A DNA stretch of 61,624 nucleotides, the filler included, from Fonticula-like sp. SCN 57-25 (lineage: Eukaryota), in NCBI GenBank assembly GCA_001724245.1. It is 9 parts of 9 records of this genome, joined end to end, with 100 filler letters (N's around TTAATTAATTAA, not from the genome) between each part and the next. Parts side by side here need not be neighbours in the genome. Positions count along the whole stretch, not along the records: positions 25,418 to 34,641 come from MEDX01000742.1; 8 more parts are not named here. One strand, given 5' to 3'. Every line of letters starts with the position of its first letter. Within the stretch, counting starts at the first letter, position 1. The position numbers were made by a program, and so were the translations under genes. Positions 25,318-61,624 of the stretch are shown piece after piece. The notes under the pieces are model-generated. The model had not been told where the DNA came from and searched no databases. It saw only the letters and a list, made by a program, of their open reading frames with translations.

Positions 25318-25449
25318 NNNNNNNNNNNNNNNNNNNNNNNNNNNNNNNNNNNNNNNNNNNNTTAATTAATTAANNNNNNNNNNNNNNNNNNNNNNNNNNN
25401 NNNNNNNNNNNNNNNNNGCGCTAGTCACACATGCTGTGCAGCGAGTACG

Positions 25450-25515
25450 CTCTAACAATTCGTTCAAGGCGGACGCGCGAAAAAGCCCGCGCGCCGCTTA
25501 ACTCCAGCGTTAGGC
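25450..25515 (+). repeat. attC: attC 1 (type B)
   Basis: CTCTAAC..GCGGACGCGCGAAAAAGCCCGCGCGCCGCTTAA..GTTAGGC. Confidence 0.93.
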
Positions 25516-25518
25516 CTC

Positions 25519-25827
25519 ATGGACAGCAAATTCCTAATCGCATCCGTCGCTCTCGTAGTCCTTTGGTTCCTATGGCTATGGTTAGCAATCGCGCTCTACG
25601 AAAAAATTGACTCGCGCTTTTCTGGCCTGCTGCCTGTTCTACATAGCCGGCTTCAACCAGTTACCAATTGGCCTTCATCGTGGGCCCTACTCAAATTTCT
25701 TTGCGCCGCTCGGCCCGGTACCATCAACGATCCATCCATTTTTAAAGCTATCTCTGTCGTTCGGTGGCTTGCTGTTCCTGTACTGTTCTTGTGGGGCTAC
25801 GTGTTGTACATCCAGTTGCAACGGTAG
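25519..25827 (+). CDS. Cassette 1: small 2-TM hypothetical protein
   Basis: 102 aa, hydrophobic termini, paralog of cassette 14. Confidence 0.8.
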   Translation: MDSKFLIASVALVVLWFLWLWLAIALYEKIDSRFSGLLPVLHSRLQPVTNWPSSWALLKFLCAARPGTINDPSIFKAISVVRWLAVPVLFLWGYVLYIQLQR

Positions 25828-25830
25828 CTG

Positions 25831-25887
25831 GCCTAACATCTCGTTCAAGGCGGACGGCTTCGCCGCCGCTTAACTCCAGCGTTAGGT
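25831..25887 (+). repeat. attC: attC 2 (type A)
   Basis: GCCTAAC..GGCGGACGGCTTCGCCGCCGCTTAA..GTTAGGT. Confidence 0.93.
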
Positions 25888-25909
25888 GCGCAGGGGAGCA
25901 TCTCGGTTC

Positions 25910-26782
25910 ATGGTTCTTTCTCAAAAAACGCTCGAGTCGCTTCGGGAAATGATCAACGAAAGGACGGAGTACCGCTCCGGCCCGAAGATCATCCAATTCT
26001 TCAATGGTCTCGGATTCAACGATTCGTACGGCCAGGGATTCCCTTCGCGTTGGATGTTCACGGATGATCGCCTGTCAAAGATCAATGGAACGCCAAAGAT
26101 TGATGAATGCATTAGGCGCACGTTTGCCCCAATCAATTTTGTTGGCCGCATGGGCGAGCTTGATCAACTTCTGAGCGACTTCAATCAGTACTTGGCTTTT
26201 GACAAATGGCGTATTGATCGTGATGGAGCGGACCTTAACTTCCGGCGGCTTGAGCGCGTTGAGGTGCAGGAACCACCCTCCCCAGAACAGCGAGAGGATG
26301 ACTTCTTGCGGCGCGACTTCTCTGACGTTCGCTTTGATGGGCTAGGACTAGAGCCCTCCGTTCTTGTCGTGCTAGAGCAGAGAGTCAAGGAGATAGAGAA
26401 GTGCTTCTCATCCGGGTCACCTCTTGCGGTGATTCTTCTCGCCGGCAGCACGCTTGAGGGCGTGCTCCTTGGCGTTGCCACTTGCCATCCCCGGGTGTTC
26501 AACAGTGCATCTGCCGCACCAAAAGACCAGGCTGGAAAGGTTCGTGCCTTTCAGGGTTGGACGCTCAATAGCTTTATTGACGTATCCCGAGAACTTCAGC
26601 TAATTGAGCACGACACCCACAAGTTCAGCCACGCTCTCAGAGACTTTCGCAACTACATCCATCCTTTCGAACAACTAGCTTCCGGCTTTTCGCCGCGTGA
26701 GCACACTGCCAAAATTTGTCTTCAAGTGCTAAAGGCCGCCTCACATGACCTACGTCAGAACGTTTCACGGCTGCGCACCTAA
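25910..26782 (+). CDS. Cassette 2: HEPN-like (abortive-infection-type) domain protein
   Basis: 290 aa from ATG 25910 after AGGGGAG. Helical C-domain with GSTLEG and LRDFRNYIHP (R..H motif). Stop lies in attC R''. Confidence 0.7.
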   Translation: MVLSQKTLESLREMINERTEYRSGPKIIQFFNGLGFNDSYGQGFPSRWMFTDDRLSKINGTPKIDECIRRTFAPINFVGRMGELDQLLSDFNQYLAFDKWRIDRDGADLNFRRLERVEVQEPPSPEQREDDFLRRDFSDVRFDGLGLEPSVLVVLEQRVKEIEKCFSSGSPLAVILLAGSTLEGVLLGVATCHPRVFNSASAAPKDQAGKVRAFQGWTLNSFIDVSRELQLIEHDTHKFSHALRDFRNYIHPFEQLASGFSPREHTAKICLQVLKAASHDLRQNVSRLRT

Positions 26783-26836
26783 CAATTCATTCAAGCCGAC
26801 GCCGCTTCGCGGCGCGGCTTAATTCAATTGTTAGGC
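26777..26836 (+). repeat. attC: attC 3 (type C)
   Basis: ACCTAACAATTCATTCAAGCCGACGCCGCTTCGCGGCGCGGCTTAATTC..GTTAGGC. Confidence 0.95.
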
Positions 26837-26840
26837 CTCT

Positions 26841-27167
26841 ATGCCGTATGTCGTTTGCCCAATCTGCAAAGCCCCATTCCACTTGAACGTTCGTGGCGAT
26901 CCGCGGGCGTGGGAGGCTCAGCACGTTACGGACCGAACGGAGGACGGTATTCCGCTCCTCGCGTGCATCCGCTGCTGGGTTGAGCTAAAGCCCGGCCACA
27001 GGGTTACTCTGCGCGTAGCTCGTGGGGATCTTGCAGTTGGCTCAGAGGGCATCGTCTTGTCTTCCAAGGATGGGGCGTTTGTAGTTTCCTTTGGCACCGC
27101 TCAGGCAGAGTTGACTAGGTCTGACTTGTTCTACGTCGTGGGCCAGCAGTCACCGGACGCGGCCTAA
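26841..27167 (+). CDS. Cassette 3: CxxC/CxxC zinc-binding hypothetical protein
   Basis: 108 aa. CPIC and CIRC, then a beta-rich SH3/KOW-like tail. Confidence 0.75.
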   Translation: MPYVVCPICKAPFHLNVRGDPRAWEAQHVTDRTEDGIPLLACIRCWVELKPGHRVTLRVARGDLAVGSEGIVLSSKDGAFVVSFGTAQAELTRSDLFYVVGQQSPDAA

Positions 27168-27221
27168 CAATTCATTCAAGCCGAACCCGCTTCGCGGGTC
27201 GGCTTAATTCAGGTGTTAGGC
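27162..27221 (+). repeat. attC: attC 4 (type C)
   Basis: GCCTAAC..AAGCCGAACCCGCTTCGCGGGTCGGCTTAA..GTTAGGC. Confidence 0.95.
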
Positions 27222-27223
27222 AT

Positions 27224-27532
27224 ATGGATATCGGTCAGCTCAAAAAGATGCGCAGGCATCGTCGCCTCTTCCGCTTAATGGGGGTTATGTGGGCGGTCGT
27301 CGGCGGGATGCTCCTGGTCTCGTTCATCCCGCTGGTCTTGGATCCCAGTGCATCCATTGTCTACAACGGTGCGCCTACTACTGCGTTCGGCCCCAAGCTT
27401 TCCGCGGCGTTGTTTGCTGGTGCGTTCCTGGGCGCCGGCCTTTGCTTCCTCTTCCTGCCGGCGCGCATACTTGATCGGCTTTTTGTCTGGCGCCAGTCTG
27501 CCCTGTCCGCCTTCATGTTCTGGCGGCGTTAG
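27224..27532 (+). CDS. Cassette 4: 2-TM hypothetical protein
   Basis: 102 aa, two hydrophobic segments. Confidence 0.75.
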   Translation: MDIGQLKKMRRHRRLFRLMGVMWAVVGGMLLVSFIPLVLDPSASIVYNGAPTTAFGPKLSAALFAGAFLGAGLCFLFLPARILDRLFVWRQSALSAFMFWRR

Positions 27533-27533
27533 C

Positions 27534-27590
27534 GCCTAACCACTCGTTCAAGGTGGACGGCTTCGCCGCCGCTTAACTCAAGCGTTAGGT
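27534..27590 (+). repeat. attC: attC 5 (type A)
   Basis: GCCTAAC..GTTAGGT. Confidence 0.93.
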
Positions 27591-27617
27591 TGCTTGTCCA
27601 ACACTGCTAGGCGTCGA

Positions 27618-28052
27618 ATGGATCCACTCGATCAATCATTGCTCATGGACCTTGTGCTCGCTATCAAGGATGGCGAGGAGGAGCGCGTGCATCAGCTACT
27701 TACACTCGGTGTTCCACCCGATCGTATCGACAAGTCTTCCGGCTGGAGCGCATTGCACGCTTCGGTTCTGTACAACACAGTATTTCTCCCAGCACTTCTA
27801 CAGCGCACACTCAATCCAGACGCGCCTACGGTCCTTGGCGGCACAGCACTCTCATATGCCGTTCACGAGCTTGGCGAGAACCCAAGCATTGAACGCCAGC
27901 GGCAACTTCACGACGCAATAGGCTTGCTTCGACGCTCAGGCGCAAATCCCAAGTTCGGCGGCCCAGATCAGAGTGCTCTTGAGCTTTCTCGTCTTTACAG
28001 AATGCCGGATGTAGAGCAACTTCTTTTGCAAAGCGTGGGTGGCGCAACCTAA
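27618..28052 (+). CDS. Cassette 5: ankyrin-repeat protein
   Basis: GWSALHAS, GGTALSYAV, GANP, SALELS. Start ATG 27618 or TTG 27594. Confidence 0.8.
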   Translation: MDPLDQSLLMDLVLAIKDGEEERVHQLLTLGVPPDRIDKSSGWSALHASVLYNTVFLPALLQRTLNPDAPTVLGGTALSYAVHELGENPSIERQRQLHDAIGLLRRSGANPKFGGPDQSALELSRLYRMPDVEQLLLQSVGGAT

Positions 28053-28109
28053 CTATGCGTCCAAGCGGACGCGCGAAAAGCCGCGCGCCGCTTAACTCCA
28101 GCGTTAGTC
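28047..28109 (+). repeat. attC: attC 6 (type B)
   Basis: ACCTAAC..GTTAGTC. Confidence 0.93.
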
Positions 28110-28233
28110 GGCAGCTCGTGTTGGTTTGTCGCATCGTGTGTTTCGCCCAGCTTCGCGCTGGCTTGTCGTCCGTCGCTGCAGCAGCTTNTCGTCGTGCGCC
28201 AACATCGTCGCCCGAGCATGCTGCGTCGCAACC
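28110..28233 (+). other. Cassette 6: ORF-less cassette (contains an N)
   Basis: No credible start codon with RBS. Both ends similar to cassette 11. Confidence 0.75.
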
Positions 28234-28289
28234 GTCTAACTCCTCGTCCAAGCGGACGGCTGCGCCGCCGCTTAACTCAGGCGTTAGGC
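28234..28289 (+). repeat. attC: attC 7 (type A)
   Basis: GTCTAAC..GTTAGGC. Confidence 0.92.
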
Positions 28290-28299
28290 CCAGAAAAGC

Positions 28300-28842
28300 A
28301 TGGGTACCACATACCGATTCGTTGCAGCTCCTTCCGAACCGTCCGAAGTTCTTGGGTGGTTCAGGTCTTTGCCATCTCCACCTGAGGAGGTTCCTGCCAA
28401 ACACGGGGCCACCCTCTACTTCAGGGAGTCAGGTCCGCTCAACTATGGCGTGGACGGGCGCATCGACCCAAGATCATCTCCCGTAGTAACAGTCTTCCTC
28501 CCTCAGATTCGCCGCGGCTCACTATGGACGGTTGGTGAGGTTCACTTTCTGGCTACGCCGCTGCGGCAACAGTTCCCCGCCCTCTACAGGGTTAGCTCCG
28601 CGTTTTCAAAATGGTTGGCAGACCTGCCTTGCGTTTATACAAACAAGCGCAAAGAAAACGAGTTCGGCTACTACCTAGAAGGCTCCGTCAAAAACCACGA
28701 TGAGCCAGTGTATGCGTTTGACTCCGGCCTGAGTGCACTTCAATCTGGTCGCTACTTCGTCGGGGAACGCGACAATGACTCTGTGCTCAATTCTCTGTGC
28801 AAGGCACTTCGGCTCCGCGGGGTTGAGTGTGCCGAGGCCTAA
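28300..28842 (+). CDS. Cassette 7: soluble hypothetical protein
   Basis: 180 aa, fills the cassette, stop in R''. Confidence 0.8.
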   Translation: MGTTYRFVAAPSEPSEVLGWFRSLPSPPEEVPAKHGATLYFRESGPLNYGVDGRIDPRSSPVVTVFLPQIRRGSLWTVGEVHFLATPLRQQFPALYRVSSAFSKWLADLPCVYTNKRKENEFGYYLEGSVKNHDEPVYAFDSGLSALQSGRYFVGERDNDSVLNSLCKALRLRGVECAEA

Positions 28843-28893
28843 CCAGTCATTCGAGGCGGACGGCTTCGCCGCCGCTCAATTCCAGCGTTAGGC
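28837..28893 (+). repeat. attC: attC 8 (type A)
   Basis: GCCTAAC..TTCGAGGCGGACGGCTTCGCCGCCGCTCAA..GTTAGGC. Confidence 0.92.
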
Positions 28894-28900
28894 CTCTTAA

Positions 28901-29311
28901 ATGAAAGTCTCGGAACTTTTAGAGGATCTTCAGACTGCACTCGAGCAGTTCCCGGACGCGCACGACTGGAGGATAGGCGTCGCCAGTTATGTTGATCAGC
29001 CCGGCGGTGAAATTTCAGTAATGTACGTAGCCAGCGTTCACAGCGACTCGGATGAGGAGTTCTTTCTTGTTCCGGAGGGCTACGGCGAGTTATATAACCT
29101 AGCCGAGGCGCCTCTTACGGCAGACGAGCTACTAGCCAAGCTCAAGGCCGAGACCGGCTGGGCCGGATTTATCGCCTACACTAGGAGCAAGGTTAACGAG
29201 CAGGCGGATGGTTCCGTGGTCAGCATGAACATGCCACTGTGGGGCTGTGGTGTGCAGCCAAACGCGCATCTTGTGTACTTTTATTTTGGGCCAGGCGCGC
29301 CAGAGGCCTAA
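28901..29311 (+). CDS. Cassette 8: acidic hypothetical protein
   Basis: 136 aa, stop in R''. Confidence 0.78.
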   Translation: MKVSELLEDLQTALEQFPDAHDWRIGVASYVDQPGGEISVMYVASVHSDSDEEFFLVPEGYGELYNLAEAPLTADELLAKLKAETGWAGFIAYTRSKVNEQADGSVVSMNMPLWGCGVQPNAHLVYFYFGPGAPEA

Positions 29312-29362
29312 CAACTCGTTCAAGGCGGACGGCTTCGCCGCCGCTTAACTCAAGCGTTAGGC
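29306..29362 (+). repeat. attC: attC 9 (type A)
   Basis: GCCTAAC..GTTAGGC. Confidence 0.93.
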
Positions 29363-29366
29363 CTAG

Positions 29367-29693
29367 ATGGAAACATTCGTCAACATTGTGTTCGTTGTTT
29401 CAGTCATCGCTGTGTTCCCAGCGTTTCTTGCGTCCATCTACTGTTCTTATGCGCTCAATCGCTATGTTCGTAAATCGCATCCAGAGATATGGGCCAAGAT
29501 CGCACCGCAACCCATGGCGCAACCTTCGCTATCTTCACCAGCTTCACGCTTCGTGACGCAACGGAAGTATCGCGAGGTAAACGATGTTCGGCTCAACGTC
29601 CTCGGCGATCGTTGCTTCCGGCTCTTATACTTCGCTGTATCGATTTTTCTTATTGTCGTCTTGTCGGGCCTTGCTTCCAGTTCCCCAAAGTAG
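29367..29693 (+). CDS. Cassette 9: 2-TM hypothetical protein
   Basis: 108 aa, TM - YVRKSHPEIWAKI loop - TM. Confidence 0.78.
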   Translation: METFVNIVFVVSVIAVFPAFLASIYCSYALNRYVRKSHPEIWAKIAPQPMAQPSLSSPASRFVTQRKYREVNDVRLNVLGDRCFRLLYFAVSIFLIVVLSGLASSSPK

Positions 29694-29707
29694 GGGCGCT
29701 GCTCAAG

Positions 29708-29764
29708 GCCTAACATTTCGTTCAAGGCGGACGGCTACGCCGCCGCTTAACTCTAGCGTTAGGT
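29708..29764 (+). repeat. attC: attC 10 (type A)
   Basis: GCCTAAC..GTTAGGT. Confidence 0.92.
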
Positions 29765-29791
29765 CATCATCGTTCTCCTACGGTCGACGTC

Positions 29792-30016
29792 GTGAAAACT
29801 TTCCTTGTACTAGTCATCGTTCTCGCTATGTGGAGCCCTGGCCTTTGGTTTGCTGGCCACCTAACGGATCTCTACGGGTCTGAGGGTAATGCTCCCTTTA
29901 TGGCGTTCGTTGTGGAAATCGTTTTACTTCTCTTGCCTATCTACTTCGCTTTCGGCCCCGGCCACAAGCACCTAGAATCCTTACTGAAGTTTCTTGGCAT
30001 AGTCGACGACGACTAG
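29792..30016 (+). CDS. Cassette 10: small membrane protein
   Basis: 74 aa, GTG start, two hydrophobic segments. Confidence 0.65.
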   Translation: MKTFLVLVIVLAMWSPGLWFAGHLTDLYGSEGNAPFMAFVVEIVLLLLPIYFAFGPGHKHLESLLKFLGIVDDD

Positions 30017-30024
30017 TGGGTACG

Positions 30025-30081
30025 ACCTAACAATTCGTTCAAGGCGGACGGCTGCGCCGCCGCTTAACTCCGGCGTTAGTC
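30025..30081 (+). repeat. attC: attC 11 (type A)
   Basis: ACCTAAC..GTTAGTC. Confidence 0.92.
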
Positions 30082-30279
30082 GGTAGCTCGTGTGGGTTCT
30101 TCGTGTGGTGTGTTTCGCCCAGCGTCGCGCTGGCTTGTCGTCCGTCGCCGCAGCAACTTCTCGCGTGGCATCGTCGCAAGCCTGGGCATTCAGAGCTGGC
30201 AGTTTTGGGGGTAGTCGGTTGTTCAAGCTTGGCGTTCGTCGTGGCAGTCGTTGCCGCCCGAGCATGCAGCGTCGCAACC
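30082..30279 (+). other. Cassette 11: ORF-less cassette, full-length relative of cassette 6
   Basis: About 200 bp, G/T-rich and A-poor. Only a GTG-started 60-aa frame with no RBS. Confidence 0.75.
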
Positions 30280-30342
30280 GTCTAACATTTCGTCCAAGCG
30301 GACGCGCGAAAAGCCGCGCGCCGCTTAACTCCAGCGTTAGAG
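30280..30342 (+). repeat. attC: attC 12 (type B)
   Basis: GTCTAAC..GTTAGAG. Confidence 0.92.
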
Positions 30343-30351
30343 GTCGAAGAC

Positions 30352-30855
30352 ATGAAGCCACAGGAACTCATGACGCTTGCGCTACGCGTCTTGGCTGTTT
30401 TCATCGCCTCGCGAGCACTCGTCTATCTAGCTGATGCTGCCGTCTTCGTGGTTATGCCAACTCAGAATCAGCTCGGCCTCCCTTTTCCAATCCTCGCTCT
30501 AATTTCTTTGCTCGGGCCGGCAATTGCAGCAATCGTCGTCTGGTGGTGTGCGCCTTATCTCGCACGGCTAGCGGCGCGCGGCATCACCGATGTCCCGGTG
30601 GCAGCGCTAGACCAGCAATCAATTGTCGGTGCTGTGTTCGTCGCAGCAGGCACCCTCATATTCATCCTCGCGTTACCGGGTTTGGTTGGCAACGTAATTC
30701 GCGCATTTAGCACACATGGGTTGTTCGTGCTGCCGTCACTTGTCGCCAGCGTCGTCCAGTGCATCCTTGGTGCAGCTCTCGTTGTAGGTGCTCGGGTTAC
30801 TTCTCGGCTTCTGCTCCGTCTGCGTTACGCTGGCACTGGGGCACGCGACCTCTAA
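30352..30855 (+). CDS. Cassette 12: 4-TM hypothetical protein
   Basis: 167 aa, four hydrophobic segments. Confidence 0.8.
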   Translation: MKPQELMTLALRVLAVFIASRALVYLADAAVFVVMPTQNQLGLPFPILALISLLGPAIAAIVVWWCAPYLARLAARGITDVPVAALDQQSIVGAVFVAAGTLIFILALPGLVGNVIRAFSTHGLFVLPSLVASVVQCILGAALVVGARVTSRLLLRLRYAGTGARDL

Positions 30856-30915
30856 CATTTCGTCCAAGCGGACGCGCGGAAAAAGCCCGCGCGCCGCTTA
30901 ACTCAGGCGTTAGCC
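30850..30915 (+). repeat. attC: attC 13 (type B)
   Basis: CTCTAAC..GTTAGCC. Confidence 0.92.
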
Positions 30916-30932
30916 ACCCAGGAGAGTCTCTC

Positions 30933-31271
30933 GTGGATCCAACTCTTGCTTCGCTTCTTGGAACCATCGTAGGTGGCGGTATAACGTACCTACTCAATAG
31001 GCAGTTACACGCACAGCAACTTGCAGCGTTGAAGGAGCAGTTCAAGACAGATTTCATGGCAGAGGAGACAGCTCGCCACTTCTTGAGCCATAAGTCCTTC
31101 ACGGACAGGTCATTTGACGTACTCAAAAAGCACCTTGGTGGGTTCTCGGAGGATGACCTCCGGAAAATTCTCGTGCGTGCCGGTGCAATCAGAACCTTTC
31201 GAGAGGACGGCACAGAGTGGTGGCGCCTCCTGAGTCGCATGGATGAGTACATCGAGAAGAAAGGTGGCTAA
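30933..31271 (+). CDS. Cassette 13: N-terminal TM plus small soluble domain
   Basis: GTG 30933 after AGGAG, 112 aa. RSFDVLKKHLGGFSEDDLRKILVRAGA..EWW resembles a winged helix. Confidence 0.78.
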   Translation: MDPTLASLLGTIVGGGITYLLNRQLHAQQLAALKEQFKTDFMAEETARHFLSHKSFTDRSFDVLKKHLGGFSEDDLRKILVRAGAIRTFREDGTEWWRLLSRMDEYIEKKGG

Positions 31272-31325
31272 CAATTCATTCAAGCCGAAGCCGCTTCGCG
31301 GCTCGGCTTAATTCAGGCGTTAGGC
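31266..31325 (+). repeat. attC: attC 14 (type C)
   Basis: GGCTAACAATTCATTCAAGCCGAAGCCGCTTCGCGGCTCGGCTTAATTCAGGCGTTAGGC. Confidence 0.95.
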
Positions 31326-31328
31326 CTC

Positions 31329-31643
31329 ATGCACGATAGATTCGTACTTGCGTCAATTGCTCTCGTAGCCCTTTGGCTACTATGGCTATGGCTGGCAGTC
31401 GCGCTCTACCAAAAAGTGGATTCACGCTTTTCTGGCCTGCTGCCTGCCCTTCATAGCCGGCTTCAACCAGTTACTGATTGGACTTCATCATGGGCGTTGC
31501 TCAAATTTATTTGCAAAGCCCGGCCGAGCCTCATCGATGATCCTTCAATTCTCAAAGCTGTTTCGGTTGTTCGCTGGCTTGCTGTTCCAGTACTGTTCCT
31601 GTGGGCCTACGTTTTGTACTTCCAGTTGCAACACCCGGCCTAA
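31329..31643 (+). CDS. Cassette 14: small 2-TM protein, paralog of cassette 1
   Basis: 104 aa. Shares DSRFSGLLP.LHSRLQPVT.W.SSWALLKF and VVRWLAVPVLFLW with cassette 1. Confidence 0.82.
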   Translation: MHDRFVLASIALVALWLLWLWLAVALYQKVDSRFSGLLPALHSRLQPVTDWTSSWALLKFICKARPSLIDDPSILKAVSVVRWLAVPVLFLWAYVLYFQLQHPA

Positions 31644-31694
31644 CCAGTCGTTAAAGGCGGACGGCTTCGCCGCCGCTTAACTCCAGCGTTAGGC
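31638..31694 (+). repeat. attC: attC 15 (type A)
   Basis: GCCTAAC..GTTAGGC. Confidence 0.92.
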
Positions 31695-31739
31695 TCAGCT
31701 GCTTCAAGCCTCCACAAAACTAGGCAAATCCGAAAAGCC

Positions 31740-31997
31740 ATGAACTCCGACGATCCATCCACCAAGCCGAAGATGTCTTTCAAGCAAAGGATGTTGGCTT
31801 TGGTGAGCGTACTTTGGGTAATCGTTGTATTTGTTGTTTCCCTAAACTTCAACTCACATCAAATTAGTCGCTATTCACCAAACGAGCGGCTCGACGTCCT
31901 CGGCTTCTTCAATGGCTTTGTTATCTTCGGTATCATCCCGCTGATCTTGCTATTCGGCATCAAGTGGGTGGCTGCGGCACGCCGGCATAGGGGCTAG
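31740..31997 (+). CDS. Cassette 15: 2-TM hypothetical protein
   Basis: 85 aa, two hydrophobic segments. Confidence 0.72.
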   Translation: MNSDDPSTKPKMSFKQRMLALVSVLWVIVVFVVSLNFNSHQISRYSPNERLDVLGFFNGFVIFGIIPLILLFGIKWVAAARRHRG

Positions 31998-32015
31998 CAC
32001 TCTTGTTGCCCGTCC

Positions 32016-32079
32016 GCCTAACCACTCGTCCAAGCGGACGCGCGAAAAAGCCGCGCGCCGCTTAACTCAAGCGTTAGGC
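32016..32079 (+). repeat. attC: attC 16 (type B)
   Basis: GCCTAAC..GTTAGGC. Confidence 0.93.
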
Positions 32080-32086
32080 TCCAAAA

Positions 32087-32491
32087 GTGAAAGTCACGAA
32101 GTCAGCCGCCATTATGCTTCTTGCGCTCGTGCATGCGTTCGTTTTTGGCGTCGTGTGTGCGTCGATTGGCGCGCGCTTTGGATTCTACAATTTGGCTAGC
32201 GCAGGATCATTTATGCGTTCAGCGCTTCCGAGCGCCTCTATCGCCAGCCTTGTCGTAACTGCTCCGTTGGCGTTTGCTGCCGGGTGTATCGGTGGCAGAC
32301 CGTTCCTTTTGTACAGTAGCCTCGCTTTTATCTTGGCTTGGGTGACTTTGGCAATCTTGGACTACCGCCTAGTATTCCTACTTAGCGAATATTTTCTAAT
32401 TCCACCGGCTGTCGCGCTTATAGCAATTGCATGTTCTGGCTATGTATTTTTTACTCTGGGCTCCCGTGCTCGCCATAGCGTACGCGCCTAA
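32087..32491 (+). CDS. Cassette 16: 4-TM hypothetical protein
   Basis: 134 aa, hydrophobic, stop in R''. Confidence 0.75.
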   Translation: MKVTKSAAIMLLALVHAFVFGVVCASIGARFGFYNLASAGSFMRSALPSASIASLVVTAPLAFAAGCIGGRPFLLYSSLAFILAWVTLAILDYRLVFLLSEYFLIPPAVALIAIACSGYVFFTLGSRARHSVRA

Positions 32492-32542
32492 CCACTCGTT
32501 CAAGGCGGACGGCTTCGCCGCCGCTTAACTCAAGCGTTAGGC
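32486..32542 (+). repeat. attC: attC 17 (type A)
   Basis: GCCTAAC..GTTAGGC. Confidence 0.93.
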
Positions 32543-32602
32543 CGCTCAAAACGGTATCGTCGTAATCGCTGCATTTCTTTCAATTGCAAAGGGGAGTTGC
32601 TC

Positions 32603-32831
32603 ATGAAGGTCTTCGAATCTGCGTTGCTTTTCGGCGTTGCTTACGTTCAGCGCCATCTCGCTTGGACTTTTCCCGCGCCCACTCACGCTCAGCAATCCCA
32701 CGCTATTCGTTGAGGCGCTCGCCATCGCCGGCTTGGTTCTTTTCGGTCTTGGTGTACGCGGTCTCTATCGCGTTCATCGCGTCATTTCCGGCAACAGCTC
32801 GTACGCTCCGTCCCGCAGCGCAGCGGCCTAA
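32603..32831 (+). pseudogene. Cassette 17: frameshifted small membrane protein
   Basis: AGGGGAG RBS with ATG 32603 (MKVFESALLFG) stops after 36 codons. The +1 frame (LLTFSAISLG..AAA) ends at the R'' TAA. Confidence 0.55.
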
Positions 32832-32889
32832 CCCGTCGTCCAAGCGGACGCGCGAAAAAGCCGCGCGCCGCTTAACTCCAGCGTTAGTG
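32826..32889 (+). repeat. attC: attC 18 (type B)
   Basis: GCCTAAC..GTTAGTG. Confidence 0.92.
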
Positions 32890-32901
32890 ACTGACATTGC
32901 C

Positions 32902-33351
32902 ATGTCCAATCACAAGATTCGTCGTGCGGAGCCTGCCGACGCTACTGAAATCGCCGTGTGCCTTTCTGCTCTTGGTTACGGCACCTCGGCCAGTCTCGTT
33001 ACCGAACGACTTGCCTCATTTTCCAAGAGCCTCGTGGATGCTGTATTCGTCGCTTCGGTTTCCGGTCATGTACCGTTGCTGGGTGTTGTTAGCGTGCATT
33101 TGCTACCTCTCTTTCATACTCCAGGTCTACTAGGTCGCATCACCTCACTTGCAGTCAGCTCTGAGGCCCGCAGCAAAGGTGTAGGCAAAGCACTCGTTGC
33201 GGCAGCTGAGGAGTGGGCTTGGAGCGAGGGTGCTCAGCGCATGGAGGTTACGAGCGGCGATCACCGTCTCACTGCGCATGCGTTCTACCAAGCAGTCGGG
33301 TATTCGCTAGACGAGCGCCGCTTCATCAAGCATGCTGCCAAAGCAAGCTAA
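32902..33351 (+). CDS. Cassette 18: GNAT N-acetyltransferase
   Basis: 149 aa. IRRAEPAD, ITSLAVSSEARSKGVGKALV (motif A), AHAFYQAVGY. Confidence 0.92.
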   Translation: MSNHKIRRAEPADATEIAVCLSALGYGTSASLVTERLASFSKSLVDAVFVASVSGHVPLLGVVSVHLLPLFHTPGLLGRITSLAVSSEARSKGVGKALVAAAEEWAWSEGAQRMEVTSGDHRLTAHAFYQAVGYSLDERRFIKHAAKAS

Positions 33352-33402
33352 CAGTTCGTTCAAGGCGGACGGCTTCGCCGCCGCTTAACTCAAGCGTTAG
33401 GC
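33346..33402 (+). repeat. attC: attC 19 (type A)
   Basis: AGCTAAC..GTTAGGC. Confidence 0.92.
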
Positions 33403-33407
33403 CTTTC

Positions 33408-33704
33408 ATGCGAACACGCCAAGACTTTGATGCGGGCCTTTCTATAGTCGCTTCGGTTGTGCGGTCGTGGGATCCATATCGTCTCCTAGATTCAGGCGCG
33501 CCGCCTGACGAGTTCGACGCGCAGATCGCCAAAGTGGTTGCCTGCATTCCTCGCATCTCAAACGCAGCGGCAGCAGCAGCGGCGTTGTCATCGGCCTTCT
33601 CAGCATCGTTCGAGCCGGAGTTGTTCTCTCCTGCTCAATGCGCAGTTCCCGGGCAAGAGCTCTTTGCTAAGCTGTCGGCAGCGGGCCTTGTGGCATCGGC
33701 CTAA
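33408..33704 (+). CDS. Cassette 19: DUF1871/YugE-like protein
   Basis: 98 aa, WDPY.L...GAPPDEFD motif. Confidence 0.7.
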   Translation: MRTRQDFDAGLSIVASVVRSWDPYRLLDSGAPPDEFDAQIAKVVACIPRISNAAAAAAALSSAFSASFEPELFSPAQCAVPGQELFAKLSAAGLVASA

Positions 33705-33754
33705 CCAGTCATCCAAGCGGACGGCTTCGCCGCCGCTTAATTCCAGCGTTAGAC
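33699..33754 (+). repeat. attC: attC 20 (type A)
   Basis: GCCTAAC..GTTAGAC. Confidence 0.92.
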
Positions 33755-33760
33755 ATTAGG

Positions 33761-34228
33761 GTGAGTTCAATGGCAACCGTGCAGCTTGCCAAAGTTGGCT
33801 CTTGGCAGTTCGACATGCCGGAAGCCTGGCTTCCCAAAGACAACGAAAGCAGCGACTCGTACTTCGAGGCGCCTGACGGAGAGAAAGGGCTGTACGTCAA
33901 GTGCATCGAGCTGCCTCACCCAGAGGCCTCACCACATGCGGTCGCAGAGTACGTGCAAGGCGTCCACTTCACGGGTTTCACCGAAATCAGCGGTTCAAAG
34001 TGGGTGGTGCAGCGGCGCACAGCTGAAGAGCATGGAGGCCTTGTCAGGTCTATCCTTGACCTTTACGACGTCCAGGCAAGTTATCGTGTGCTGTCGCTTG
34101 TAGTTTGCGGCAAGCAACAGGCAATCCAAATTACCGTACACGACTACTGGTGCACAGACTATGCGGCAACGTGTAACACTTTCAGACCATTGGTTGCATC
34201 AGTCCACAGCACGCAGTCAATGGTCTAA
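33761..34228 (+). CDS. Cassette 20: hypothetical protein, possible PsbP/DcrB-like fold
   Basis: 155 aa (ATG alternative at 33770). WQFDMPEAW near the start, beta-rich, F..LVASV at the end. Confidence 0.72.
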   Translation: MSSMATVQLAKVGSWQFDMPEAWLPKDNESSDSYFEAPDGEKGLYVKCIELPHPEASPHAVAEYVQGVHFTGFTEISGSKWVVQRRTAEEHGGLVRSILDLYDVQASYRVLSLVVCGKQQAIQITVHDYWCTDYAATCNTFRPLVASVHSTQSMV

Positions 34229-34279
34229 CAACTCGTTCAAGGCGGACGGCTGCGCCGCCGCTTAACTCAAGCGTTAGAA
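34223..34279 (+). repeat. attC: attC 21 (type A)
   Basis: GTCTAAC..GTTAGAA. Confidence 0.92.
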
Positions 34280-34285
34280 GGTAAC

Positions 34286-34519
34286 GTGCGTAACTTTTTC
34301 GTAGGGCAAAACATCACCCCATTTTCTACCGCTCTGCGACTGGCCGTTGTTGCGGTGTGTCTCGCGTTCGCCGGTTTTCTGCTGGTCCTTCTCGCAATGT
34401 CTTGGCATGCGCGCGTACTCTTCGTTTTGGGGTTCGCGTGCGCAGTGACCGGCATCTTCGGTGGCATCGGCGCAATACTCTACGGCTGGTGCGTTTTTGC
34501 TCGTTCACGCGGTAGGTAG
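34286..34519 (+). CDS. Cassette 21: 2-TM hypothetical protein
   Basis: 77 aa, GTG start, hydrophobic. Confidence 0.65.
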   Translation: MRNFFVGQNITPFSTALRLAVVAVCLAFAGFLLVLLAMSWHARVLFVLGFACAVTGIFGGIGAILYGWCVFARSRGR

Positions 34520-34532
34520 CGGCGGCGCAATC

Positions 34533-34559
34533 TTCTAACTACTCGTTCAAGGCGGACGG
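34533..34559 (+). repeat. attC: attC 22, left arm only (interrupted)
   Basis: TTCTAACTACTCGTTCAAGGCGGACGG then an abrupt switch to foreign sequence. Confidence 0.85.
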
Positions 34560-34641
34560 GATAGTTCCTACGCTTTAGTGGACACCCTGAACTACCACTT
34601 CAGGAGTCCACAAGATGCCCAAACCAGGTCCACGAACCACC
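34560..34641 (+). mobile_element. Left end of an IS3-family-like element with start of orfA
   Basis: TTTAGTGGACACC IR-like core, AGGAG RBS, ATG 34615 (MPKPGPRTT), RBS-covering hairpin. The contig ends here. Confidence 0.6.
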
Positions 34642-45456: not shown

Positions 45457-45538
45457 GACAACGTGTCCGAGTGGTTAAGGAGACAGACTCGAAATCTGTT
45501 GGGATCTTCCCGCACAGGTTCAAATCCTGTCGTTGTCG
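45457..45538 (+). tRNA. tRNA-Ser(CGA)
   Basis: Acceptor GACAACG/CGTTGTC, anticodon arm ACAGA-CTCGAAA-TCTGT, long variable arm, GGTTCAAATCC T-arm, followed by CCA and TTTT. Confidence 0.96.
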
Positions 45539-54541: not shown

Positions 54542-57500
54542 TTAATTCCCGCGCGAGGATGACGCAGCGTGCATCTGCCCGTCGCTGTCTCCGTCCTCCT
54601 CCTCGTACTCGTCGTCGTACTCGTCGTCGTCCGACTCTTCGTCGCCCTCGAGCGCGGCCTCCTCGACGAGGCTGTCGAGCATCGCCGCGCCGCAGACGCG
54701 CACGGCGACCGTGTCTGCCTCGGCGACGGCGTCGGCGCCGAGCATGTGGATGACGTAGTCTGGCGGCAGCGCGTAGGGCGGTGGGCGGACGCGCCTGGCG
54801 TACGACTCCGGAGGGCACACCGGCGGCGGCACCGCAGCGATACCCGCGTGCTCGGCGGCAAACTCGACGTAGTTGAGCGTGGCGAGTGCCGGGGCGGTCG
54901 CCTTGCGGTGGACGAGGAAGAGCGCCATGGCGACCGAGCCGAGCAGCATGACGCCGCCGAGCGCGATGAGGACGATGAGCCACGGCGGGAAGACGAAGGG
55001 CAGCGGCGCGGCGGCGTCGGAGGGAGCGGGCGGCACGGCCACGTTCTGGAGGACCACAAAGTCGGAGAGGTGGGTCGTGAGGCACTGCGCGCTACGGCTG
55101 TCGGCGCGGAGAAGGGAGACGCCTTCCTGTGACCACGTGCCAGAGTCATAGTCGAGGTACGCGCACACGAGGCGCGCGGGGTCGATATTGTCCGCGGCGT
55201 CAAACTCGAAGCGAATCTCGACGGTGTGGCCGCCAAGGTCGGAAATGTAGTCGCGGCCGTTGTCGTCAAGAACGCCGAGGCGAGTGCTGCGAGAGCAGTC
55301 GCGCAGCGCCATCGTGTGGACATTGCCGTCGCTCGGCTGCCAGCGCGTCGCGTTGCCGGCGCCAGAGGTGTCGTACAGCGGGTCGTCGGTGCGCGAAAGG
55401 ATGCGCGCAAAGAGGGCGCGCGCGGCGTTGCCGACAGTGCTAGCGACGTTCGTCTGATTGCCGCCCTCGAGCTTGATCTCGGACGGCGGAGGAACATTCG
55501 CGTACACGGTCGTGTCAATGTCGAGCGAGCTCGCGCAGAGGCACGTGGCGGCGGAGCCGTCGGGGCGCGCGACGCCAAAGGTATCGGGGAAGGTGAAGCT
55601 GCTCACGGCGTGGCCGCCGTCGAGGCGATCGCGGCTGGCCGTGAACGAGATGATGGCGCCGCGCACCGTCGAGGGGCTCTGACGGCACGCCTGGCCGGTC
55701 TGGTACAGCTGCGCGCCAACATCGAGCGCCTGCCAGAACAGCTTGAGGTCGTCCACGGTCGTCTCGGGGCGCGCGAGCAGCACATTCTCTTCAGCGCGAA
55801 GAAGGCAGCCCATAAAGTCATCGGGCATCACCATGCCGTACGTCATCGAGCTGTTGAATGCAACGACTTCGCCGAGAAGGCGCACGAGAAGGGCGGCCGA
55901 CTTTTCAGCGGGGAGGCTCGCCGACGCCTCGGAGAGGGTGCTGAGGACGCACACCTTGCGCATGACGTCGTTGGCGGTCGGCGGGATGCGGTTGCCGGCG
56001 CTGTCGACGGCAGAGTCGAGCGACTGCAAAAAGTCAGACACTTGCGAGGCAATCGCAGAGCGCGGCGACACGGCGGTGTTGACAGTGGTATCAGCGGGGG
56101 CGACGACACTGCGCGCGTAGAGGTCCGAGGACGAAGTGCCGTTGAGGCGGTCGTTGGAGACGGCGAGGCACCCGACAAAGTTGGCCGCGAGGATCTGGAG
56201 GTCGCGCCAGCGGCCGAGCAGGTAGAGCTCTGACGAGCGCCTTCCAAACTCGTTCTCGAGCACGTTGAGGCTGGCCGTATCGGTGACAGTGCACGGCTCG
56301 ACGATGATGACCTGCTCGACAAAGCTCATAGCGCCGTTCTTTTGAATGATGCGGGCAATGACGCGGATGACGTTACCGTGAGTCGGGTTGGGCATGGTCG
56401 TGTTGAGGAGACCGGGGCGCTGCGAAGTAGCCTCGACAAAGCCGTCCTCGCTGTAGTACATGCGGATCGAGTACGTGAGCGGCAGCTGGCTCTCCTGGGC
56501 GGACCAGCCGGGCAGCGAGATGATAAAGTCGTCAAAGACGGCGCGGCCGGACGCCGGCGCAATAACAAGAGAGCCGCCGAGCGGGATGCTCGAGGTGACC
56601 ACCTGCAGCGTGCAGTACGCGACCTGCTCGCCGCGCGTGCCGTTCACGACCGCAAAGATCTCGAGGCGGAACTGGTACACGGAGTTGGGCAGCAGCACCT
56701 CGGGGCGCAGCAGAAGGCCGTCCTCCGAGTTGGGCGGGCCGTTCAGCAAGTTCGGGTTGCTCAGGTCGACCGTCGACAGCGAAATGTTGTTGAAGCCGAG
56801 CGCGCGCGTCGTGCCCTCGAGCGACGTCCACAGGAACTCGTACGTCGCGTTCGGGAGCAGCGAGAGGAGCGCAGAGATGGCCAGCGGGCGCGTCACGACA
56901 AAGTCGGTCGGGTCGGTGCTGCCCGTGTCGAGCAGCGCGTACGGCAGCGGCCCCTGGCGCACCTCGATGACGACAAAGTCGGTCAGGTGCACGAGGCCGG
57001 CGTCCTGCTCGGTCGCGCGGACCTCAAAGTGGTACAGCATGCGCTCGGGGTCGGCGATCAGCTGGAAGGCCTCAAAGTTGGCAAACTCAAAGAGCTGCGG
57101 GACGGGCGACGCGTCCGTCGTGACGTTGCGGATGAACTGAGGCTCAAAGGCAATGATCCTGAGCGGGTCGTTCGGGTCGAGGACGAGGCACGAGTTGGTC
57201 GACGCGAGCGGCGCAACGTTGGTGCAGCTCAGGCGGAGGTCGACGACGCGGCCGCCGAGGCCCGACGGGTCAAGGAGGCTCACATCAATGGTCAGAGCGG
57301 ACGCCTCGCCGATCGAGCGCCATCCACCACCGAGCACGCGAAGGCGGAGCGGCGGCGGCAGCACGTCAATCACAATCGTGTACTGGCCGCTGAGCGACGG
57401 CGTGTCGATAGAGTGCACCGTCACGGTGACGTTGTACTGCGTGCGCGGCGTGAGCGAGTTGCGCGGGAACAGCACCGACGCGGCGTGCTCCTGGCCGGCA

Positions 57501-59856: not shown

Positions 59857-60231
59857 GGCTAGCCGGTGGGTTCTGGGACAGTTTCACGATGAAGCAAACG
59901 ATCTCCTTTTCGACAATACCGCACACCAGCCGTGCGAAATTAGTCAACAGGGTGAGCATCGCGAAAGGACGGCGCCACGCATCGCCGCCCCTTGCCCGAA
60001 AGGGACGCACGCGTCATTGCCAGGGAGCGATGACAGAAACAGACAGTCAGCAAACAGTCAGCAATCAACTCTTTAACTCGCATGCGATTTTGGCACGTTT
60101 TTGACATGTCTTGACAGATGAGACCAGCCAATCAGCATCCAAGTCAACCCGTCAAAGTCTCCTTTTTTGCTTTCGTACTGAAACCTCCCCGGCACAAGTC
60201 GCTTTTCGTGTTGCACGCTCAAAGCCCTAAG

Positions 60232-61624
60232 ATGCCTGCTGCCGACACTACGGTCACCCACAAGGGTGCGTATTGCTCCATTTTATCTTTATCTAACGGC
60301 ATCCGCAGCGCTTCCCGCCGGCTGGTCGGTGCACGAGGATGAATCCGGCCGCATCTACTTTTCCCAGTACGCGCGCGTGGCGGTTGCGAAGTGTGCTATG
60401 ATTCTGACGATTAATCGCGCGCCTTAGGTCGTCCAGCCAGTCCACTGCGTGGCAGGACCCGCGCATCCCGCGCGCGCAGCTGACCGAGTTTGGTGCGCAA
60501 ATCCGCATGCGATTTTTCAGTGATGATCTTACCGCCCGCCAGACAATGTCAACGCGCCCGCCTACGTGAAGGCGGCTCTCTACCTTGTGCGCGATGGGGA
60601 CAACCACAGCTGTGCGTCAAGTTCATATTTATTTCCTCCTTTCTGCTTTTCTGACCTGATTACCTCTAGTCCGCTACCTTGATGCCACGCGCGTCAGCCT
60701 GCAGGTGCAGAAGCACCGCTCGCTCGAGGAGGGCGCCTTTATCTCCAAGGGCGACTTTTCGCGCCTTGTTGAGCAGATGGTCATTGACGCTGTCTCGCCC
60801 GGCGAGCGCTCTGCGATCGTCTTCCGCATCGTCGATCGCGTCTTTTCGCTGCTCGATCTGCCCTTCAAGGGCGAGGCCGAGTTCCGCGCGTCCCTGCTTG
60901 CGCTTGTTCTCCTGAGCGAGATCCCGCTCAAGGAGAAGGTCTCGCATGCTTTCAACATTGTCGACTCGCAGAACCGCGGCGAGCTCACCAGCAACCAGAT
61001 GCTCGTGCTGCTGATGCTCATCTCGCGCCTCGTTGAGAACCCGCTGTACCGCTACAAGATCGTGCCCGACAGCGCGACCGCGCAGGCGTACGTCCAGGAT
61101 ATGTACCACGTCACCCGCGCCGGCACGTTCAAGCTCGTTGACTTTATCCGCTTCGTCAACACGAACCCTCTGCCCCTTCGCCACCTGATCATGGCCGAGA
61201 AGATCCGCCTGTCGCGCGACGTGACGCACACTGACAAGGAGTGCAATGTCTGCCGCGCGCTCCCCATCAAGGGCATCCGCTACCGCGTCAAGGACGCCAA
61301 GGTCAAGCACTGCAACATCTGCCAGACGTGCTTCTGGGCCGGCCGCGAGTCCGCCGACTACAAGAAGGGCATGACCGTCATCGAGTACACCACCGCCAAC
61401 ACGTTCGGTAAGCGCGTCGCCAACAACGGCCTCCTCCTCGACGCCCCGCGCGTCCCGCGCTCTGGCAGCGCCGCCGTCGCCAACATTGGCAACTCGCTCA
61501 ACCTCTTCAAGTCGAACCAGGACTACCGCAAGACGGGCACGCTCCAGAAGCAGACTGGCACCCTCCAGAAGCAGACCGGCACGCCGTCCGGCACGCTCCA
61601 GAAGCAGCCCGTCGCGTCGGCGTC
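60232..61624 (+). CDS. Short dystrophin-family protein (WW, EF-hand region, ZZ), 3' truncated, 5 exons
   Basis: Spliced WW LPAGWSVHEDESGRIYF..TAWQDPR, then DNVNAPAY, LKEKVSHAF and ZZ CNVCRALPIKGIRYR..NICQTCFWAGR..IEY. Missed by the ORF track because of introns. Confidence 0.8.

Follow-up and report, generated by a model that had tools for sequence, protein, structure and literature searches.

The chromosomal integrons of the Xanthomonadales, which include the integron downstream of ilvD in Xanthomonas and those represented by the Rhodanobacteraceae classes of the integron integrase (IntI) that are common in soils, are the nearest described system to the locus considered here. This locus is exactly one contig of 9224 bp (MEDX01000742.1; 25418..34641, + strand, with a single N at 28188) within a window of 61,624 nt, the whole stretch of DNA that was analysed, from the assembly of Fonticula-like sp. 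SCN 57-25 (GCA_001724245.1). Like the Xanthomonadales integrons, the contig holds a long array of short cassettes, mostly of unknown function, that are separated by a few closely related types of the recombination site attC. In the portion of the Xanthomonas work drawn on here, a function could be assigned to only 6.8% of cassette proteins (PMC12444791), and Table 1 of a survey of environmental samples gives Rhodanobacteraceae-type IntI in 41.7-91.7% of them (PMC9176274). The arrays of Rhodanobacter, Dyella and their relatives have the same attC core as the contig, which lies there beside an IntI of the TIGR02249 family. Unlike the Xanthomonadales integrons, the locus is a fragment without intI or attI, and it shares no cassette order with the 85 assemblies in which its attC core was found. 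The contig is a genuine and typical fragment of a cassette array, and it very probably derives from the integron system of an environmental Rhodanobacteraceae-type gammaproteobacterium (Rhodanobacter-, Dyella- or Frateuria-like) that was assembled beside eukaryotic DNA. The most interesting by-product of the analysis is an insertion sequence (IS) at the right end of the contig that is apparently specific for attC.

By the established biology of the relatives, each unit of the array would be a promoter-less cassette, usually consisting of one short gene and one attC. The IntI tyrosine recombinase would excise cassettes by attC x attC recombination and re-insert them at attI, and only the cassettes near the cassette promoter (Pc) would be expressed, so that most of the stretch would be a silent reserve.

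The sites were located by a direct-repeat search combined with a pattern scan. Twenty-one are complete palindromes of 56-66 nt, and a 22nd is broken off after 27 nt, at 34559; the 22 attC-type palindromes and the array of 21 cassettes that a preliminary description had reported for the contig are thus confirmed, with the last site interrupted. Twenty cassettes lie between complete sites, the 21st ends in the interrupted site, and the contig starts with the 32-nt tail of a 5′ cassette, which spans 25418..25509 when attC 1 is included as far as the G in its R′ box (this and all features below are on the + strand unless stated). The identity of the sites was examined with a covariance model, R1, built from 29 attC sites of arrays that adjoin full integron-integrase genes in four Rhodanobacteraceae genomes (Rhodanobacter sp. 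Col0626, R. lycopersici, Dyella lutea and R. ginsenosidimutans) and searched unfiltered against both strands of all 61.6 kb. On the + strand, every one of the 21 complete sites is matched by R1, with scores of 62-78 bits (E 4e-18 to 8e-14). The − strand gives matches at five of these sites, with 14-22 bits (E 0.0025-0.36), and none at E <=1 at the remaining 16; the best match in the other eight contigs has an E of 0.17, with nothing credible among them, and the cut 22nd site is not detected. These strand-specific matches fix both the identity of the sites and the orientation of the array, and the repeats are genuine integron attC sites. The comparison with an attC covariance model that had earlier been proposed as a check came out at 21 of 21 sites, with our own model R1 in place of that of IntegronFinder. 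As the top strand is the + strand, the integrase end would be to the left, off the contig.

Three length types can be distinguished among the complete sites. The 56/57-nt type accounts for 12 of them, ten with 57 nt, namely attC 2 (25831..25887; R1 score 75.6 bits), attC 5 (27534..27590; 71.0), attC 8 (28837..28893; 75.0), attC 9 (29306..29362; 78.4), attC 10 (29708..29764; 74.5), attC 11 (30025..30081; 70.8), attC 15 (31638..31694; 72.8), attC 17 (32486..32542; 77.8), attC 19 (33346..33402; 70.1) and attC 21 (34223..34279; 73.4), and two with 56 nt, attC 7 (28234..28289; 73.6) and attC 20 (33699..33754; 75.5). The 60-nt type is represented by attC 3 (26777..26836; 66.2), attC 4 (27162..27221; 67.1) and attC 14 (31266..31325; 69.3). 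Six sites belong to the 63-66-nt type: attC 6 (28047..28109; 62.2) and attC 12 (30280..30342; 69.0) with 63 nt, attC 16 (32016..32079; 72.5) and attC 18 (32826..32889; 62.2) with 64 nt, and attC 1 (25450..25515; 66.9) and attC 13 (30850..30915; 62.1) with 66 nt. What is left of attC 22 (34533..34559) is its R″-L″ arm of 27 nt, cut by the IS.

All 21 complete sites carry nnCTAAC … GTTAGnn, the R″ and R′ boxes in inverse orientation, on the + strand, with columns 3-7 and 61-65 of the alignment invariant. The bottom strand, folded as single-stranded DNA (attC 9 and attC 16 are among the sites folded), forms a 7-bp R box, an internal loop, an L box, a stem and a short terminal loop; a G in the L box and a T in the stem are bulged, both on the ″ arm, as can be seen in attC 9. 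For the 17 named pairs of this structure, 93.6% of the cells in the 21-site alignment are paired, a share that drops to 23-41% if one partner is displaced by 1-3 columns, and both-sided (compensatory) changes are found in five of the 17. The two outermost pairs of the R box often fail within one physical site, as would follow if the six bases at the end of a site were part of the next cassette.

Excision and insertion of cassettes as circles, with the cut between G and TT, would leave a footprint in the pairing of R′ with the R″ of the same cassette. In 18 of 21 cassettes, the GTTnnnn at the start is exactly the reverse complement of the nnnnAAC at the end of the same cassette, which reproduces the count given in the preliminary description, whereas the same comparison for the physically adjacent halves of one site gives 6 of 21. 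Permuting the R″ boxes 100,000 times yielded 6.5 matches on average and 13 at most, and 18 was reached 0 times. With a crossover between G and TT, the first six bases of a cassette belong to its own attC, and in these 18 cassettes the correspondence is exact. Leads that depart from the majority occur in seven cassettes outside the three misses, and all seven match their own R″. The misses are cassettes 6 and 11, which are related and have one mismatch each, and cassette 18. In the case of cassette 18, contigs from one metagenome run have 11 extra bases just after 32887, directly behind GTTAG, that turn the lead into an exact complement of R″ (19 of 21 would then agree) and provide the GNAT gene of this cassette with an ATG. 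Because the metagenome version restores both the R′/R″ match and the start codon, the form of cassette 18 in the window is taken to be a deletion or an assembly slip. The 11-base differences at 32887 and at 32631 (in cassette 17) are probably assembly errors or micro-deletions.

With regard to the source organism, the attC type, the shared cassettes, the G+C content of the array and the terminal IS all point to a Rhodanobacter-, Dyella- or Frateuria-like bacterium. The exact 28-base core of the 57-nt attC type occurs at no fewer than 174 loci in at least 85 assemblies. In a hand count by record title, 54 of the 85 assemblies among the matches listed are Rhodanobacteraceae, 39 of these being Rhodanobacter; eight more are other Lysobacterales, seven are Burkholderiales or Nitrosomonas-type, two are others, and the rest are unclassified proteobacterial metagenome-assembled genomes (MAGs). 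A full IntI (TIGR02249, 433-495 bits vs a cut-off of 265) is encoded beside such arrays in four of five genomes tested, by a divergently oriented intI that lies about 0.4-2.7 kb from the first exact match to the attC core. Four cassettes (11, 17, 19 and 21) are common to the relatives at 79-95% nucleotide identity, the matches to cassettes 17, 19 and 21 being at 79-86%. The longest stretch shared with any of the 85 assemblies is 352 nt, and cassette order is therefore not conserved. Arrays of the relatives have a G+C content of 54-58% vs 60-73% in their flanks, and that of the contig is 55.4%. The proteobacterial origin proposed earlier is thus supported and can be narrowed to a gammaproteobacterial source of Rhodanobacteraceae type. 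Rhodanobacter sp. Col0626 also has, at 60011-60448, an incomplete match to IntI with a TGA inside it.

Public sequencing runs provide information on habitat. Twenty of the 24 runs listed contain part of the stretch, the best being a metagenome from a bioreactor, in which 95% of the sampled words occur and which may be the source sample. Thirteen further DNA runs from sludge, soil, biofilter and outdoor metagenomes hold 45-62% of the sampled words, and six RNA runs hold 22-31%. Four runs from four studies gave cassette-sized contigs of 99-100% identity, with 0-4 bases different, that end in attC sites. The cassettes, and probably the organism too, are widespread in engineered and soil habitats. 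Because metagenomes of bioreactors, sludge, soil and biofilters contain near-identical cassettes, a free-living bacterium is indicated rather than a host-bound symbiont, and is more likely than either a symbiont or a gene transfer. Of the prey, symbiont or contaminant suggested in the preliminary description, prey and symbiont find no support, while a free-living bacterium that was co-assembled or mis-binned fits the occurrence in metagenomes. Joints between non-adjacent attC sites were also encountered in the runs and were considered as signs of cassette shuffling; they lie inside the repeats, with sides of 24-48 nt, and joints of this kind prove nothing.

Several observations weigh against a chromosomal integron of this bacterial family as the source. 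The contig lacks intI, attI and Pc alike, and a search of the whole window for IntI found none, so that an attachment to an integrase is putative. A tblastx match to IntI at 56602-56921 (E 4e-4, 30-37 residues) lies inside a REJ-domain open reading frame (ORF) of another contig and was rejected as chance. The contig carries no housekeeping gene, and the attC core is also present, among the matches listed, in some Burkholderiales, Stenotrophomonas, Xanthomonas and other assemblies; the assignment to family level is consequently one by frequency and not by marker gene. Finally, a second array with this attC type is present in Rhodanobacter sp. [quoted passage not shown] The lack of intI on the contig and the distant array of Col0626 together imply that the contig may come either from an integrase-linked array or from a CALIN, and the contig taken alone would be a CALIN by classification. 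The earlier claim of a chromosomal integron is an extrapolation from the relatives, and, with neither intI nor attI on the contig, the array may instead be a CALIN. A published criterion for sedentary integrons, as given in the part of PMC4889954 used here, is more than 19 attC sites or presence in all genomes of a species; the 22 sites of the contig exceed that number, in a criterion that applies to integrons with an integrase.

A CALIN in the same kind of bacterium, perhaps split off by IS rearrangement and with cassettes that could be mobilised in trans, is the rival that survives best, and we hold it to be unlikely. It would account for a contig that has no intI and that ends at one side inside an IS, and it has a precedent in the array of Col0626. 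In the sections consulted of the study by Cury et al. 2016 (PMC4889954), 38% of CALINs have a neighbouring IS and a few reach 114 attC sites, but only 6.6% exceed 10 attC sites, as compared with 22 here. Moreover, four of the five relatives tested have a full IntI beside arrays of the same type, and the left end of the contig is merely cut inside a cassette, such that the integrase may be further left.

A location of the array in a mobile integron on a plasmid or transposon is suggested by its three 60-nt sites and is otherwise very hard to sustain. A megablast search of the contig against 72,556 plasmids matched 3083 records, all in attC-sized pieces, and a coverage of 80% of the query is reached by none of them, 1-3% being the coverage at the best places. 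In plasmid pKPN5 the matches lie directly behind aadB and behind the next cassette, downstream of intI1, and the plasmid sites are 88-98% identical to the three 60-nt sites; attC 3 is 96% identical over 45 nt to the attC after aadB in this class 1 integron, and attC 4 is 98% identical over 52 nt to the attC after a YciI-family cassette in the same integron. The likeness to class 1 integrons (the attC behind aadB and those of aadA cassettes) is thus one of recombination sites and for the three 60-nt sites only, whereas there are no genes in common and the other 18 sites are of the 56/57-nt and 63-66-nt types. The array has 22 sites of three closely related length types, beyond the threshold of more than 19 attC sites set for sedentary integrons in the same part of PMC4889954, and none of its ORFs matches a resistance family at cut-off in Pfam or NCBIfam.

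The window as a whole consists of nine contigs, artificially joined by spacers of the form N...TTAATTAATTAA...N. Among 15 long ORFs scanned on the other contigs, six contain PPR, protein kinase plus fn3, REJ or Calx-beta domains and nine have no domain match; one of these contigs has an end made up of a Rieske-type coding stretch followed by gtacgt. The neighbouring contigs are plausibly eukaryotic DNA. Transfer of the array into the nuclear genome of the eukaryote, to which its presence in the same file as contigs with eukaryote-typical domains might point, is the least credible reading of all, as neither end of the 9.2-kb contig adjoins non-bacterial sequence (a cassette on the left, a bacterial IS on the right), the sites are uneroded (21 of 21 at >=62 bits), the ORFs are intact in at least 18 cassettes, and near-identical cassettes occur in sludge, soil and biofilter metagenomes. 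The array contig is bacterial and is not to be annotated as part of the eukaryote. At gathering scores, Rfam gives nothing on the array contig, and at E <=1 one chance-level match only; the sole Rfam match at gathering score in the whole window is a tRNA gene at 45457-45538 (61.3 bits) on another contig.

Two groups of elements are known to insert specifically into attC and in one orientation, the IS1111-attC group and the group IIC-attC introns, as described in the portion of PMC12444791 drawn on here. A third may be represented at the end of the contig, where the last attC is split by an IS at which the cassette junction would be frozen; this split explains why the assembly stops there. The window holds the first 82 nt of the element (34560..34641), comprising the left inverted repeat and the first nine codons of OrfA, and this part is 95% identical to the end of a contig of Rhodanobacter sp. 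C03. The element belongs to the IS3 family, and its remaining features are predicted from full relatives in a gammaproteobacterial MAG, which are 1249 bp long and have imperfect 27-bp terminal inverted repeats. In these relatives OrfA matches HTH_Tnp_1 (4.9e-14), an overlapping OrfB matches rve (1.5e-24), a slippery A-run followed by G precedes the OrfA stop, and a 3-bp target duplication accompanies five of the six MAG copies. In the plasmid collection, no IS3-family transposase is more than ~43% identical to OrfB. With terminal inverted repeats, a 3-bp duplication and an IS3-family DDE transposase read from two frames that overlap, the element would differ from the two attC-specific groups, being neither a DEDD-transposase element nor a retro-element.

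In the MAG, five of the six copies have an attC site as their target; two of the copies occupy adjacent attC sites, with one cassette enclosed between them. In the first set of loci together with the window, 11 of 12 distinct left junctions are in attC. The element was then found in 31 of 201 sampled genomes of the family, which provided 19 further distinct flanked left junctions, and 16 of these are attC-like (15 by pattern and one by eye); of the other three, one is in another copy of the IS, one in a degenerate site and one elsewhere. In total, 27 of 31 left junctions are in attC, and in all 27 the left end of the IS lies 19-20 nt after the AAC of R″, following the R″ arm, with the transposase reading in the direction of the cassettes. 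These junctions suggest that the lineage may home to attC in one orientation and at a fixed position near the hairpin apex, as a third mechanistic class of attC-targeting element, and our judgement on that proposal is evenly divided. Loose ends in two metagenome runs also resemble the ends of related ISs, one of them at the position equivalent to attC 14.

Within the IS3 family, the closest parallels are IS1397, ISKpn1 and ISPsy8, which, like the element here, have a strong preference for a repeated chromosomal hairpin. Their target is the repetitive extragenic palindrome or palindromic unit (REP/PU), whereas that of the element here is apparently attC, and the element is set beside IS1397 by description and not by sequence comparison. 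According to the part of PMC1525189 available, specificity in IS1397 and ISKpn1 is determined by the transposase itself, and in the literature searched, including that part, targeting of hairpin repeats by the IS3 family was found only for REP/PU (IS1397, ISKpn1 and ISPsy8). Targeting of attC was found in the literature only for the IS1111-attC group and group IIC-attC introns; ISfinder was outside this search, and it is therefore not established that an attC-targeting IS3 element is undescribed.

The genes of the array are co-oriented with attC, as had been noted before. In 19 of the 20 complete cassettes the longest ORF is on the + strand, the exception being cassette 13 (112 vs 114 aa), and ORFs of 64-290 aa are found on the + strand of 19 cassettes. 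Ten of these 19 (cassettes 1, 4, 9, 10, 12, 14, 15, 16, 17 and 21) encode at least one hydrophobic segment of 19 residues, as judged by a crude hydropathy scan. PADLOC, NCBIfam and PHROGs each gave no match for at least 17 of the 20-22 ORFs, and the family searches that had been put forward as a check left most cassettes without an assignment, in keeping with the mostly uncharacterised functions claimed for the array. Among the four products named in that earlier account, the GNAT protein stands by Pfam and the ankyrin protein by its structural model, the DUF1871 match is marginal, and the HEPN-like protein is recognisable by fold and motif with no Pfam match.

The ORF of cassette 2 (25910..26782) encodes 290 aa, of which the C-terminal half is HEPN-like. 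The protein has 2,853 homologues at E <=0.001 among the candidates scored, and neither it nor these homologues has a Pfam domain. In the 120 listed matches the identity is 61-95% over the full length, the sources are diverse Proteobacteria, and many of the homologues are on contigs of ~950-1,200 nt, the size of one cassette. For the predicted structure (predicted local distance difference test, pLDDT, 80.7), VIA-align gave Z scores of 8.4-9.6 over residues 143-290 in its top 13 rows, in a range (below ~13) that is weak for helical bundles; five of these rows are named HEPN, five are toxin, Csm6 or AbiA entries, which we take to be HEPN as well, and three have uninformative titles. Foldseek alone gave no match at E <=0.001. 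HEPN proteins, whose domain is a four-helix up-down bundle, are defined by a conserved R-x4-6-H motif. In 26 homologues of the cassette 2 protein the stretch RDFRNYIH is conserved, with R247, N248, Y249, I250 and H251 invariant and R244 and D245 at >=90%; R244 and H251 have R-x6-H spacing, and R247 and H251 alone would be R-x3-H. The first 50 residues are similar to the N-terminal end of the PADLOC Stk2 model (5e-9) and to two PHROGs whose function is unknown. Distant homologues occur in five of 400 sampled genomes of the class, matching residues 115-281 in four and 48-263 in the fifth, and a crude pattern search beside these five revealed no convincing attC. The protein can reasonably be considered a candidate defence or toxin-like RNase.

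Cassettes 11 (261 bp; 30076..30336) and 6 (28104..28283) belong to one family and are probably non-coding. Copies of 74-95% identity are present at seven loci of relatives (Rhodanobacter and Frateuria), three of which have two copies; cassette 11 is 95% identical to a cassette of Frateuria hangzhouensis and 86-88% identical to the Rhodanobacter copies. Substitutions in the family have no three-base periodicity, with 17/16/22 and 22/26/25 variable sites per phase in its two subgroups, and the subgroups differ by single-base insertions and deletions. A protein on either strand of cassette 11 was rejected, as all frames are open through composition and the substitutions are without three-base periodicity. 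The consensus fold of the + strand has 46 pairs that are 93.9% paired, eight of them with changes on both sides, and it includes many G-U pairs that are non-pairing on the other strand. Because the structure was predicted from the same sequences, this evidence is only suggestive; the family, for which Rfam has no match, is possibly a cassette-borne small RNA transcribed from the + strand, and cassette 11 is a candidate structured RNA. Cassette 6 is a shortened copy that lacks ~80 nt of the family sequence exactly at the N at 28188, a position that makes an assembly or scaffolding gap the probable cause. A loose end at 28189 in one metagenome run carries the type of sequence that cassette 6 is missing.

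Cassette 5 (27618..28052) encodes 144 aa. Pfam Ank_2 scores 25.4 bits, under its cut-off of 27.3, and the structural model (pLDDT 92.1) has Foldseek matches at probability 1.00, with template-modelling (TM) scores of up to 0.72/0.82 and a root-mean-square deviation of 2.2-2.8; the top rows are designed ankyrin-repeat proteins (DARPins) or engineered repeat proteins and gankyrin. The modelled fold confirms the product as an ankyrin-repeat protein. An identical protein is encoded on 10 contigs, the longest of 3.88 Mb, which implies that a near-complete genome with this cassette exists in public data. Cassette 18 (32887..33351) encodes a GNAT acetyltransferase of 154 aa that matches PF00583 (Acetyltransf_1) at 51.9 bits vs a cut-off of 20.7. 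In NCBIfam nothing reaches the cut-off, the best score being 40.2 vs 142, and the aminoglycoside acetyltransferase models are far below. The 98-aa product of cassette 19 (33408..33704) is DUF1871-like (PF08958) at a marginal 23.1 bits vs a cut-off of 22 (E 1e-4), and the cassette is 86% identical at the nucleotide level to a locus of a Lysobacteraceae MAG. The 155-aa product of cassette 20 (33761..34228) is a lead only, with a predicted fold like that of PsbP/DcrB/Alr1449 in the ESM Atlas. Cassette 7 (28300..28842) encodes a protein of 180 aa and unknown function with 294 homologues of fixed length in very diverse phyla, none of which is annotated or has a Pfam domain, and the ESM Atlas offered nothing usable.

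The remaining cassettes encode small proteins. Function is unknown after family searches for those of cassette 3 (108 aa; 26841..27167), cassette 8 (136 aa; 28901..29311) and cassette 13 (112 aa; 30933..31271), the last of which is overlapped by a 151-aa ORF on the − strand that runs into attC 13. Cassette 1 (25519..25827; 102 aa, two hydrophobic segments) has no family match and is a paralogue of cassette 14 (31329..31643; 104 aa), at 80% over 300 nt. Two hydrophobic segments are likewise found in the products of cassette 4 (27224..27532; 102 aa), cassette 9 (29367..29693; 108 aa), cassette 10 (29792..30016; 74 aa) and cassette 15 (31740..31997; 85 aa), and four in those of cassette 12 (30352..30855; 167 aa) and cassette 16 (32087..32491; 134 aa). 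Cassette 21 (34286..34519), whose own attC is the interrupted one, encodes 77 aa with three hydrophobic segments and is 86% identical at the nucleotide level to sequence of Rhodanobacter sp. OK091. Cassette 17 (32537..32883) has only a 64-aa ORF, at 32637-32831; in the contigs of three runs, 11 additional bases follow 32631 and extend the ORF to 81 aa, and the lack of these bases in the window truncates what is a small membrane-protein ORF.

For the assembly, the practical message is that the contig is bacterial and should be kept out of the annotation of the eukaryote. For integron biology, the array contributes 21 cassettes to a body of uncharacterised cassette genes that is already large, and cassettes 2 (HEPN-like) and 7 (the 180-aa family) are candidates for phage-defence screens, which are under way on integron cassettes according to the part of a preprint seen (bioRxiv 10.1101/2024.07.02.601686). 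If the IS lineage does home to attC, it would split attC sites and freeze the cassette junctions there, it would seed homologous rearrangements that make orphan arrays, and copies in neighbouring sites would bracket a cassette in the manner of a composite transposon. Should its specificity hold, the element would offer a simple DDE-transposase system for the recognition of a folded or asymmetric recombination site, and a mechanism by which arrays may be broken into orphan clusters.

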